64,000 bases of DNA from contig CP147780.1 of assembly GCA_037310415.1 (NCBI GenBank), forward strand, positions 2,304,001 to 2,368,000, read 5' to 3'. The stretch is from Candidatus Atabeyarchaeum deiterrae. Lineage in GTDB: Archaea; Asgardarchaeota; Atabeyarchaeia; Atabeyarchaeales; Atabeyarchaeaceae. The notes beneath the pieces were generated by a model. The model saw nothing but the letters and a program-made list of their open reading frames with translations, was not told the origin of the DNA and made no database searches. Position numbers and translations under genes: made by a program. Position 1 is the stretch's first letter, and each line of letters starts with the position of its first letter. Positions 42,136 through 51,189 of this stretch are shown one piece after another.

Positions 42136-45100
42136 ATGCGGTCTACCCTTCGGTGGTCAAGATTGGATGGTAAACACAAGACTGGAAGGAAATTGAAGGG
42201 GAACAGGAACTTCATTTTGTTGACCGCCGTATTGATGATCTCATTCATGATAGGACCGAGCATGTTTGTAAATTTCGCCGCAGCAAGCTCGACAACTTAC
42301 ACTGGAAGTGGCAACAATCGCTCAATTCTAGAGCGCGCGAATAATCTATGGTCAAGCTCAGTCAATGGAAACAACACTCTTTTCAACGCAACTCTGCCAG
42401 GCAGCAGCTGGACCGGCTATCAGTTGGGTACAACCTTCACGAACATCGCAAGAAACGCCGACTACGTCGCGAACGGACAATTCACCGGACCTGGTCCGAG
42501 TTCACCGAGTCCGTGGTCCTACTCAGAAAGCGGTGACACAAGTTACCTTGACGGCGCTTTCGCCACATCACCTCCAACAGGAACCACAACTGGCAGCGAC
42601 TACATCACACTGACGGGGAAAACTGTAGTCGTAACCCCAATAACCAACATGAATTTCACCTCTTCAGGTAGTCCCTGGGTGGCCAAGACTGTACCATCAT
42701 CTACAAGTTATGGAACGTACACGAACGCGTGGAACAGCAATGAGTGGAACCAAAAAGGTGCCTACAATAGATTAGCATCTGGCAACCCAGCTACTGTATA
42801 TGCAGATATGTACTGCGACCAGAATTTTACTGTTAGCGGAGCAACGTTTCCACTGATTCTTGCAACGCTGACCTACAAGACCTGGGTTGACATCTATCAG
42901 GTTGCCACTAGTGCCACACTTCGTATACGAGTAATCTTCAGTTACTTCCCCACACCCAGCACATCAACTGATACTACGATACTCGATTGGACACCCCTAG
43001 GCACAAACTCGAAACCCACCAGTAACAGTCTTTATGATTTGACCAGCAGAATAGCTTCGAATGGAAACTACAGAGTTAGACTCTGGACTTACGTTTCCAT
43101 GACTATCAACACCGTGGGAGCCAGCTCTACTTTGAGTTCACGTTTTGATGACGTAGGCATCTACATGAGAAATACAAAATTCTCATCACCAAGCCAAGCG
43201 ACATGGGGGCAAACATTCAACTTTGGCCAGTACGCAACAACCGACGGAAGACTGACCTTCAAGTACTACACGGATCTCACGACACTTGCTCCACCCACTG
43301 ACTCTTATCTCTCAGCTTGGGTTGGATCAAACCGCTACGATATCGCAGCCTTTTCATCAATTGCGACAGGAGGCTGGCGAACTGCTACTACTATCATTCC
43401 GTATTCCGTGTTCAACGGGTCAGCAACAATATCAATCAAAGTCGGTGTCTATATTGGTTCGAATCTCCAGATACAGACTGCGACCAATCCGCGATTCTAT
43501 TTTGACAACGTCACCTTCTTCATCAAATACAAGCCGACCCCTGCATCCATCAAACTCGGCATATATGACGATGCCAATCATCAGAGGTGGAACGATACAG
43601 AAACAACGTATGGTTCGGGAACTCTGACGATCAAGCCCTATGCGCCTCGTTCTGCACCTTGGGGCGGGGAATTTGCGACATTTTATTTTGTAACCAACGG
43701 TACCAATGGAAAACTTGGTTACAATCTCACGACCTTAACTTACAGCTATACTTCAACCATGTATGTCAATAGGCAAACTGAGACTGATGTCTCAACTTTC
43801 ACAGTCCATGACGACACAAGAACAAGTTGGTACTGCAACTATTCTACCCCGACTGATATTGGTGGATACCAGAACTACAACGTCACAGTCTACGTGCCTA
43901 CAGACTGGATATGGAGCGGTTTAGTGACCCAGATCAGGTTTGCTGCTACTGTGGTGACGAACTACGCCACAGCATCAAACGCGTCAATTGCTTGGATCAA
44001 CATACCTGCAACCGTGTTTGCTCCAAATCCACCAAAGTACCCACTTGAAATATGGACCTACTCGCCTAATTACTCAGGCCCATCAAGCTTAAGAACACTG
44101 ATTTTCACGCAATGTAACACAACGAATCTCCCGACTCTCGCGCCATGGGTAAATGAGACTTCCTTCATCCCAAAGAACGTCACTCGACTTGTGGGTTACA
44201 TAATGGATTTGAATGGTGGCGTTCCCCTTGATGTCAATTCATCTTCAGCGAGCATTCGACTCTACAACGAGTCCGGAGGCTTCTATACAAGCTTCAGTAG
44301 AAGCGTTAATCCTTATTCGAACGGAACATTCTTTGTGCAACTTGATCCTTGGAGTGATAGCAACGTCACTTGGCATGATGTGGGCGGCGAACATGCAACT
44401 TATTGGCGTTTCACCGTAAACTGGACCAATGGCTATGAATGCGCAAACGGAATGGCTAGATTCACCACTGACAACGCAACCTCTCATTTCACACCTACCA
44501 CGCTCACCTCACCCAACCAACCTTACACCGCGACGTATCTCAGAGGATTCACCTTAGTGGCTCTATATTGGAACGCCAGAAATGGCAGCGGCATTCAAGG
44601 CGCGACGCTGACTTGGAACTGGAATGCTAGTGGCACACCCCAACCCTTGGTCGAAACGGTACGAGGCAACTACATTGCAACCATTAACGGATCGGAAGCA
44701 TACAACAACCACTTTGCACCAGAAGGGACTTGGATTCAAGTTAATGCTACTCTCAGTGGCTATGTTGCGCGGAGCATCATGGTTCGAGTCTTTGTTAGGG
44801 ACGAAGCGACGACGGGAAGTTCTTCTAGCTTCGTAGTTCCATACCAGACCTACGGTTGGAATACCACGATACCGGCATCATTGTTATTCCAAGACGCTGA
44901 TAACAGTTCGAGTGGAATACCCGGCGCCAAGCTCTATGTCAACGGCACATGGGGCAACGCGACCGTGCTAGGTTCCTCAGGGATCGGATGGTGGTACAAA
45001 GACTCTGGAAATGGGAACTATCAGATAACTTTCCTTGCGAATGCATCTTCGACAGGACTAAGCGCATGGGCATTCACCATCAAGGTAAACAAGACATACT

Positions 45101-50829: not shown

Positions 50830-51189
50830 TTGGCGTCGCTTTGTGAGATCTTCGGAGATTCGGCGCAAGTGAAGGTTTTAGATTTCCTTTTGCACAATCT
50901 CAACGACACCATGATGATATCTGACGTGGCAAAGGGTTCTGGAGTTGCAAACTCGACGACCGCGCGGGTTGTTGAGCCACTTATTCAGTCTGGCATAGTT
51001 AGAGAAACAAGAATAGGGAAGCAGATTAGAATCATTAGGTTGAATGAGGAAGATGAGAAGGCAAAGCTACTTTTGAAATTGGTACAAGGCTTGGGAAACC
51101 TTACAACAAAGAAACCACTTGAGGAGACAACAGGAGGAAACCGAACGCCACCAAGTGAGCCAAAGGTTGCCAAGAACCGAAGAACTTGA
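50830..51189 (+). CDS. Winged-helix (ArsR-like) regulator
   Basis: IFGDSAQVKVLDFLL..ISDVAKGSGVANSTTARVVEPLIQSGIVRETRIG. Start moved to TTG 50830 to avoid overlap with the Rab gene. Confidence 0.75.
   Translation: MASLCEIFGDSAQVKVLDFLLHNLNDTMMISDVAKGSGVANSTTARVVEPLIQSGIVRETRIGKQIRIIRLNEEDEKAKLLLKLVQGLGNLTTKKPLEETTGGNRTPPSEPKVAKNRRT

Follow-up and report, generated by a model that had tools for sequence, protein, structure and literature searches.

What would an Asgard archaeon do with a small GTPase that is encoded alongside a giant cell-surface protein? The question is raised by five genes, here labelled G1 to G5, at positions 42136-50117 on the + strand of a 64,000-nucleotide stretch of Candidatus Atabeyarchaeum deiterrae (GenBank assembly GCA_037310415.1, contig CP147780.1, positions 2,304,001 to 2,368,000); "the window" refers below to this whole stretch, and the two downstream neighbours of the run are labelled G6 and G7. 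The genome that holds the window is closed (2,756,679 bp), and complete Atabeyarchaeia genomes from wetland soil have been described by Valentin-Alvarado et al. 2024 (PMC11291895). Eukaryote-like small GTPases are encoded by the dozen in Asgard genomes, together with longin and roadblock proteins; almost none of these has a known partner or function, and published work finds gene context of little help. An earlier note, made from the sequence alone, had read the locus as a receptor, an exchange factor for guanine nucleotides (GEF), GTPases and transcription factors that relay an outside cue to DNA. The present analysis favours, with somewhat more confidence than doubt, a membrane-anchored module of a longin adaptor and an Arf-like GTPase beneath a surface glycoprotein, one copy of a module that is widespread in Asgard archaea.

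The open reading frame (ORF) listing places the five genes in a single co-directional run. G1 and G2 overlap by 4 bp, gaps of 7 bp and 14 bp separate G2 from G3 and G3 from G4, and the G4/G5 gap is 0 bp, or 30 bp if G5 begins at ATG 49428, which is the start in the Atlas record and probably the true one. The tight coupling described in the earlier note is thus borne out.

Hydropathy analysis of G1 gives two hydrophobic segments, one N-terminal (aa 27-45) and one corresponding to a transmembrane (TM) helix (aa 1429-1447). The protein carries 48 N-x-S/T sequons, which suggests that it is glycosylated. Its sole Pfam match is a sub-threshold hit to Invasin_D3 (E 0.0036), a Pfam scan found no kinase or ATPase domain, and an Atlas look-up gave leads below 0.9 only; the Ig-like label given earlier to G1 is backed solely by the Invasin_D3 match and these weak leads. 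Beyond the TM helix the juxtamembrane segment YRRSKIPFVIKKIDQSIKLINKG is basic (14 K+R vs 7 D+E, aa 1448-1514), and the distal tail is acidic (32 D+E vs 8 K+R, aa 1515-1604). Hydropathy and charge counts therefore agree with the initial description of a 1604-aa single-pass protein with a juxtamembrane segment and an acidic tail.

Related clusters were found on contigs that carry distant G2 homologues of 34-39% identity (L001-L005 and others). The similarity of G1 to the large proteins of L001-L005 is confined to the C-terminal region, and the acidic distal tail is absent from the surface-protein homologues of L001, L003 and L002. Across related surface proteins the ectodomains are highly variable, whereas a motif in the juxtamembrane tail is conserved. 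In G1 (aa 1448-1512) it reads Y-x5-P-x2-h-K-x-h-x-K-x-I-x2-h-x-K-G ... R-[ST]-R ... G, and its cross-lineage form, taken from an alignment of the post-TM segments (alignment A3), is Y-x5-P-x2-h-[KR]-x-h-x-x-x-h-x-x-h-x-[KR]-G ... R-[ST]-R ... G. An iterated hidden Markov model (HMM) of the tail recovered the motif in 43 large ORFs of 143-2403 aa, a few of them cut at contig ends. In all 43 the motif directly follows a hydrophobic segment and a G2 gene adjoins, and the stop and start codons of the two genes often touch or overlap.

G2 was modelled with AlphaFold2 (AF2) from 23 homologues, with a predicted local distance difference test (pLDDT) score of 86. The model consists of a longin domain (aa 1-130), a first winged helix (wH1, aa ~141-213), a helical linker, a second winged helix (wH2, aa ~254-336) and C-terminal helices. 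A Foldseek search with the whole model returned nothing at E <= 1e-3, and VIA-align was needed to obtain fold matches. The best match of aa 1-130 is the Lokiarchaeota longin 8yqg (Z 11.4, 126 residues aligned, root mean square deviation (rmsd) 3.1); others are the GATOR1 chain 8fw5_B (Z 10.6), Lst4 (10.0), DENND1A (10.0), FNIP2 (9.8) and C9orf72-SMCR8 (9.2), and the SRX and adaptor protein (AP) complex sigma/mu longins are also among the matches. The N-termini of both G2 and G3 form the alpha-beta-alpha sandwich with a five-stranded antiparallel sheet that characterizes the longin domain superfamily. Profile-profile comparison of the two families detected no relation (probability 2%), and their sequences thus give no recognisable sign that the two longins are paralogs. 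wH2 resembles ArsR-type proteins (Z 8-9), and the tandem winged helix-turn-helix (wHTH) region gives weak ArsR/TrmB-like sequence matches. Compared with PDB sequences, the G2 profile matched ArsR/HlyU-type winged helices weakly (best E 1e-4) and did not match NPRL2, FLCN or DENN.

Part of the first description of G2, as a uDENN/longin protein with a wHTH, survives this comparison: the longin domain and the winged helices are present, and the DENN core is not. The match to DENND1A is limited to aa 1-128, the rest of the protein is two winged helices and further helices, and G2 lacks the tripartite uDENN, core DENN and dDENN arrangement. No invariant arginine is seen in aa 1-130 of the family alignment; in the first hairpin, basic residues occur at R/K12 in 55 of 60 sequences and at R/K16 in 46 of 60, candidate sites for a finger like that of NPRL2. 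Neither exchange nor GTPase-activating protein (GAP) activity can be read from a protein that has no DENN core and no invariant Arg at a known finger position, and a GEF role for G2 would be pure analogy. The proposed transcription-factor output through G2 is likewise not upheld. G2 is acidic (isoelectric point (pI) 5.2), its recognition helices are neutral or acidic, its C-terminal half holds the tail in the complex model described below, and natural fusions tether it to membrane proteins. Acidity, non-basic recognition helices and permanent tethering in the fused forms together make a released transcription factor unlikely.

A complex of G2, G3 and the G1 tail (aa 1448-1520, the scored partner) was modelled with a separate alignment for each chain. 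The tail received an interaction score (ipSAE) of 0.78 (0.80, 0.78 and 0.76 in individual runs), and the best of three controls received 0.00. Swapping out G2 abolishes the score, and the tail contacts G2, not G3. Of 80 solved complexes 58 attain this ipSAE mark, as do 2 of 110 mismatched pairs, counts that give only a rough calibration because custom alignments and three chains were used here. Model runs share at least 87% of their contacts, and the pLDDT of the partner is at least 73. Confident contacts join tail residues 11-58 to G2 residues 151, 206-219, 238-256 and 334-370; in the model these positions fall in the wH1 wing, in the linker helix and among the C-terminal helices. We know of no solved structure that resembles this complex. 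The pairing of the receptor tail with the protein encoded from 46947, raised in the earlier note, is thus predicted by the model, and contact between the G1 tail and G2 is the best-supported step of the module that we propose.

The closed genome contains exactly three full-length G2 paralogs and three tail motifs, and the members of each pair are adjacent. Apart from the operon in the window, a paralogous module at ~0.19 Mb (L011, 185000-204000) encodes a 148-aa longin-only protein, a 388-aa G2 paralog, a 136-aa protein and a 610-aa surface protein, and a module at ~1.44 Mb (L012, 1431000-1450000) comprises a divergent 309-aa Arf-like gene, a 367-aa G2 paralog and a 1375-aa surface protein.

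Tail motif and G2 are also found joined in single proteins. A word-based search for longer, fused G2 relatives had found none; when 1.84 billion cluster representatives were later searched exhaustively with a profile, 455 relatives came up and the fusions among them, so the first result reflects a limit of sensitivity. In nine large representatives a single chain runs from the ectodomain through the TM helix and the tail motif (E 8e-16 to 4e-26) to a G2 module, which is complete in eight of these (P0226 terminates inside it). Such fusions argue that the tail and G2 act together at the membrane. In P0152, P0245 and P0249 the tail motif comes straight after the G2 module and there is no TM helix; these proteins may represent an intramolecular, auto-occupied form of the adaptor. 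Taken together, the complex model, the one-to-one pairing, the fusions and the phylum-wide adjacency described next mark the juxtamembrane helix, to which the earlier note had drawn attention, as the conserved and putatively partner-binding part of the tail.

A separate set of fusions connects G2 to other domains. P0194 and P0212 carry a complete G2 module fused to a SIR2-like domain and TPR repeats (SIR2_2, E 1.2e-11; TPR_12, E 2.5e-26). SIR2-like domains bring to mind defence proteins that consume NAD, or proteins of STAND-like type.

The gene set recurs in distant Asgard lineages. Two Atabeyarchaeia clusters, L004 and L005 (the latter from the metagenome-assembled genome (MAG) LC30), have G1-G2-G3-G4-G5 followed by a reversed G6. 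L001 and L003 contain G2, G3, a 164-aa gene, a surface protein of 1189 or 1205 aa, a 279-aa longin-winged-helix protein, G5 and G4, and L002, from a third lineage, has the surface protein, G3, a 147-aa gene, G4, G5 and G2. Smaller sets are G2-G3 in Baldrarchaeia (with G5 further along), G2-G3-G4 in Freyarchaeia and two other families, and G2-G4 in Hodarchaeota and related MAGs. A 437-aa gene that follows G2-G4 in Hodarchaeota was considered as a surface protein and rejected, having neither a TM helix nor a Pfam match. Occurrence of the same genes in distant lineages places the arrangement far beyond chance, and the retention of membership while the order is shuffled argues for a functional link, against inherited synteny alone. 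Conservation of the operon in the sense of the earlier note accordingly holds for gene membership; gene order is kept in L004 and L005 and is shuffled outside these Atabeyarchaeia clusters.

Full-length matches to the G2 profile were found in 310 of 400 Asgard genomes, mostly as several paralogs in each. A further 40 loci from many families were fetched, and neighbourhoods were counted descriptively in a sample of 60 non-redundant G2 genes. A single-pass protein with the tail motif lies within 100 bp of G2 in 35 of the 60 and within 3.5 kb in 44, a full-length longin-Arf gene lies within 400 bp in 22, and G4 and G5 are nearby in 14 and 7, respectively. Association with the tail protein is seen on both sides of the midpoint root of the G2 tree, and thus in both major clades.

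Two further features of these loci deserve mention. Pairs of a surface-protein gene and G2 are often tandem duplicates, 6-8 kb apart (L028-L034, L040, L050 and L051), with a single longin-Arf gene of ~345 aa between the duplicates on the opposite strand. L001 (16054-16893, 279 aa) and L010 (2851-3762, 303 aa) encode an extra protein whose N-terminus matches the G3-type longin profile and whose C-terminus matches HTH_47, DUF742 (E 5.5e-6) and, weakly, NPR2; this second longin and winged-helix partner is absent from the Atabeyarchaeia operon.

G3 was modelled from 44 homologues (pLDDT 90; predicted template modelling (pTM) score 0.86). Its longin domain (aa 1-120; model aa 1-123) matches that of VAMP7 (Z 16.3, 116 aligned, rmsd 2.1). 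Among the fold matches of its small GTPase domain (aa 122-282), Arf6 ranks first (Z 21.1 and 20.4), ahead of Rab, Sar1 and SR-beta, and the Pfam Arf family is hit with 47.4 bits (cut-off 22.3; E 2e-12). The motifs GxxxxGKT, T156, DxxGQ and NKQD are invariant among the 44 homologues, so G3 is probably an active GTPase. The Pfam score and the intact nucleotide-binding motifs (the G1-G4 motifs of G domains, not the genes) place it in the Arf family; the Arf-type N-terminal amphipathic helix is missing, with a longin domain of 120 aa in its stead, and in structure the protein stands between Arf and Rag. Models, fold matches and Pfam thus support the fusion of a longin domain and an Arf-like GTPase that had been read from the sequence, and the descriptions of G4 as a basic coiled-coil protein and of G5 as a coiled coil with a wHTH also stand, the latter with weak matches. 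The first 50 residues of G4, which are disordered, contain 11 K+R and no D+E, and the Atlas model of the protein is a helical hairpin. Atlas look-ups of G4 and G5 gave leads below 0.9 only, and no family for G4. With a G4 HMM, homologues were found after G2-G3 or G2 in 16 other loci (a few on duplicate contigs). Homologues of G5 are present in L001-L005 and L010. The C-terminal wHTH of G5 has weak Pfam matches, its winged helix is basic (pI 10.1), and G5, alone among the module proteins, could still bind nucleic acid, judging from this charge.

Table 1. Features of the operon and its downstream neighbours, in window coordinates.
Feature	Position	Strand	Description and basis
G1	42136..46950	+	1604-aa single-pass surface protein; large N-x-S/T-rich ectodomain, one TM helix, 157-aa cytoplasmic tail
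G1 TM helix, aa 1429-1447	46420..46476	+	Kyte-Doolittle, 19-residue window, mean 2.32
G1 juxtamembrane tail motif, aa 1448-1512	46477..46671	+	Cross-lineage alignment A3 and tail HMM; predicted G2 docking site
G1 acidic distal tail, aa 1515-1604	46678..46947	+	Conserved in close relatives only
G2	46947..48071	+	374-aa putative cytoplasmic adaptor, TTG start; AF2 model, fold matches
G3	48079..48966	+	295 aa, N-terminal longin and Arf-like small GTPase; Pfam Arf, AF2
G4	48981..49397	+	138 aa, basic disordered N-terminus and helical hairpin/coiled coil; conserved partner gene
G5	49398..50117	+	239 aa, coiled coil and basic C-terminal winged helix
G6	50179..50730	-	183-aa Rab/Ras-like GTPase, convergent; lineage-specific neighbour
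G7	50641..51189	+	ORF with weak HTH (helix-turn-helix) match only (Pfam)

The two genes downstream of the run fall outside the module. G6 has a Ras/Rab-type G domain (Pfam Ras, 161.7 bits, E 1.4e-47); its C-terminus is polybasic (...PTPKKGKKK) and, containing no Cys, lacks a Rab prenylation motif. The fold and the convergent position claimed for it were correct, but the gene keeps this position in L004 and L005 only and was rejected as a core part of the module, being conserved within Atabeyarchaeia alone. G7, which had been described as another wHTH regulator, was rejected as well: it is not conserved in L004 and L005, where a second longin-Arf gene occupies its place, and only a weak HTH match remains. 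Its annotated ATG overlaps the 5' end of G6 by 90 bp (the first 30 codons) on the opposite strand, and the sole cross-lineage similarity of its first 46 residues is antisense to a G6 homologue. The true start of G7 probably lies further downstream. Elsewhere in the window, a Cas-like gene block is located at 12234-24886.

How might these parts work together? Gene coupling, the folds, the tail motif, the pairing of G1 with G2 and the intact GTPase motifs are all documented in silico. We propose that G2 docks on the conserved juxtamembrane motif of the large single-pass protein G1, its C-terminal half (wH1 wing, linker helix and C-terminal helices) wrapping the tail helix. Pairs of longin or roadblock domains are familiar from GATOR1, FLCN-FNIP, Ragulator-Rag and MglB-MglA. 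The longin domain of G2, left free, would pair in a similar manner with the longin domain of G3, and the pair would form a platform where the nucleotide state of G3 is read or set. Longin and roadblock domains habitually pair beneath GTPases (PMC3747258, PMC10933270). G4 and G5 would serve as effectors or scaffolds, and docked G2 would keep G3, G4 and G5 at the membrane directly under G1. In this scheme the contact between G2 and G3, any action of G2 as a GAP or GEF, what G4 and G5 do and which way a signal would travel are inferences, and we lean towards a membrane-proximal switch that organises or anchors the surface protein rather than a relay to transcription.

Several observations weigh against this scheme. 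The structural evidence is entirely predicted, and ipSAE is the model's own confidence. The G2 residues predicted to contact the tail are no more conserved than the rest of the C-terminal half (Mann-Whitney p = 0.65), so conservation lends no independent support to the interface. The putative contact between G2 and G3 is deduced from gene adjacency (22 of 60) and analogy. The loci were picked from top-scoring matches and are phylogenetically related, which makes the neighbourhood fractions descriptive and not statistics. In 21 of the 60 cases G2 pairs with a tail protein alone, without a nearby GTPase gene, and G2-G3-G4 triads occur without a nearby surface-protein gene in L015-L019, L042 and L048; the two halves may therefore work separately. 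The operon in the window is the fullest form, uniting two sub-modules.

The relay proposed in the earlier note, in which G1 is a sensory receptor, G2 a DENN-like GEF that the receptor tail activates, G3 and G6 the GTPases that are switched, and winged-helix domains in G2, G5 and G7 the route to DNA, shares with our scheme the receptor-like topology of G1 and the predicted contact of its tail with G2. It can also appeal to the frequency of longins in GEFs and the presence of DENND1A among the G2 fold matches (Z 10.0), to the basic winged helix of G5 and to the likeness of wH2 to ArsR repressors in structure (Z 8-9) and, weakly, in sequence. We nevertheless regard it as distinctly unlikely: the DENND1A match stops at aa 128 and winged helices take the place of a DENN core, the winged-helix region of acidic G2 is taken up by tail binding in the model, G6 is conserved in Atabeyarchaeia only and G7 nowhere, and ligand sensing, like an outside-in direction of the signal, would be an assumption. 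The natural fusions tether the G2 module permanently, which is incompatible with release to DNA. The same fusions count against a further scheme, in which the G1 tail would keep G2, as a winged-helix transcription factor, inactive until a surface cue frees it. Mlc held by PtsG is a precedent for a membrane-sequestered regulator, and the tandem wHTH with its weak ArsR/TrmB-like matches and the predicted tail binding fit such a role. With an acidic G2, non-basic recognition helices and covalent attachment to a membrane protein, and with the conserved longin and GTPase neighbours left unexplained, this scheme appears highly improbable.

Closer to the scheme that we favour, and differing from it mainly in purpose, is the handling of cargo, in which G2 would read the tail motif as a signal for sorting, insertion or retention and, with G3, direct the biogenesis, positioning, clustering or turnover of the surface protein. 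In function this would resemble the SR-alpha SRX longin with SR-beta, or the longin-containing AP adaptors, which Arf recruits and which recognise motifs in cargo tails. One G2 paralog per surface protein (3:3), the frequency of translationally coupled pairs and the combination of variable ectodomains with a conserved tail motif would suit this role, as would the presence of SR-beta, Sar1 and Arf6 among the G3 fold matches and of SRX and AP sigma/mu longins among those of G2. Cultured Lokiarchaeia, moreover, have no S-layer and display many complex surface proteins (PMC9834061). On the other hand, the cluster encodes no coat, translocon or vesicle component, internal membranes are undocumented for the Atabeyarchaeia lineage, and the lifelong attachment of G2 in the fusions suits a standing platform better than transient sorting, so we consider cargo handling rather unlikely. 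Our preferred reading thus remains an adaptor and a GTPase held at the membrane beneath the surface protein. The more specific claim of a transmembrane link, in which surface proteins govern an Arf/Rag-like GTPase, or are governed by it, by way of the shared tail motif and a longin adaptor of NPRL2-like type, is put forward tentatively, as doubtful.

The operon supplies one longin-Arf GTPase with defined, conserved candidate partners in a closed genome, and a specific, short and testable candidate docking motif on a cell-surface protein. It would thereby offer a testable archaeal module, from close relatives of eukaryotes, around a membrane-anchored small GTPase. If the contacts hold, it would be a concrete system for the role of small GTPases before endomembranes, with organising or sensing the cell surface as candidates; the cell surface is also the site of those contacts between Asgard archaea and their partners that are relevant to eukaryogenesis. 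Should the transmembrane link be true, the scheme by which eukaryotes couple a tail motif to a longin adaptor and an Arf/Rag GTPase, in cargo sorting as in nutrient signalling, would be older than internal membranes and would have worked first at the Asgard plasma membrane. A rule of one adaptor per surface protein would also aid the annotation of hundreds of giant, otherwise featureless Asgard surface proteins. The components of the module have already been published; a pairing with surface proteins was not found described in the literature searched, in a search that is incomplete.

Among known systems, G2 is closest in architecture to NPRL2/NPRL3 of GATOR1 (cf. FLCN-FNIP and C9orf72-SMCR8), where a longin domain is likewise followed by winged-helix repeats (PMC3747258), and in these complexes, too, the partner is an Arf/Rag-type small GTPase (RagA/B with GATOR1). 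The Asgard catalogue of Liu et al. (bioRxiv 10.1101/2020.10.19.343400) already lists an "NPRL2-like longin" asCOG family. In the region where the GP motif of GAP longins lies (PMC12290439), the longin of G2 begins with a hairpin of the form [RK]-W-D-[DE]-[RK]-x-G, and it has G-T and not G-P. Pfam NPR2 does not match G2 in the window and is absent among the 25 families listed, of 57, for 23 G2 homologues at E <= 1; a weak match (E 0.012) is seen only in a different protein of the L010 cluster. GATOR1 further contains a DEPDC5-like partner, and the Atabeyarchaeum cluster encodes none; Rag GTPases have a C-terminal roadblock, whereas G3 carries an N-terminal longin; and GATOR1 uses a lysosomal scaffold, while the G2 complex is predicted to hang on the tail of a surface protein.

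The architecture of G3 is identical to that of the longin-GTPase fusions described from Asgard archaea (Liu et al. 2021; Tran et al. 2024, PMC10933270; Zhu et al. 2025, PMC11914678), and relatives of G3 are known from Thor-, Baldr-, Odin-, Loki-, Hod- and Hermodarchaeota. According to Tran et al., the GTPase genes of MK-D1 do not as a rule share operons with genes for roadblock or longin proteins, which makes their partners hard to predict. G3, in contrast, shares its conserved operon with genes for a specific longin partner, for coiled-coil proteins and for a surface protein.

The closest prokaryotic analogues are the actinobacterial conservons (CvnA-D/MfpB-D) and, with them, MglA-MglB, in which a membrane protein, a roadblock/longin platform, a winged-helix-type accessory and a Ras-like GTPase are likewise combined (PMC13343842, PMC13621833, PMC11343762); the resemblance is by analogy, not demonstrated homology. 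CvnA is a histidine-kinase-like sensor, unlike G1, a giant predicted glycoprotein without a kinase domain. The platform of the conservons and of MglB is a roadblock, and that of the Asgard module is a longin, fused to winged helices and to the GTPase. CvnC (DUF742) has no match in the window proteins or among the families listed for G2, and appears only in the extra gene of L001 and L010.

At the level of the fold, the module also recalls two known assemblies in which a longin is bound to an Arf-family GTPase at a membrane, the signal recognition particle (SRP) receptor (the SR-alpha SRX longin with SR-beta) and the AP complexes with Arf1. The match is confined to the fold: the module has no coat or ribosome-receptor components, and in the model it is the winged-helix half of G2 that grips the tail, in place of a longin or a mu-homology domain. 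The AP complexes nonetheless read short cytoplasmic-tail motifs of single-pass proteins, much as we propose that G2 would read the tail of G1.

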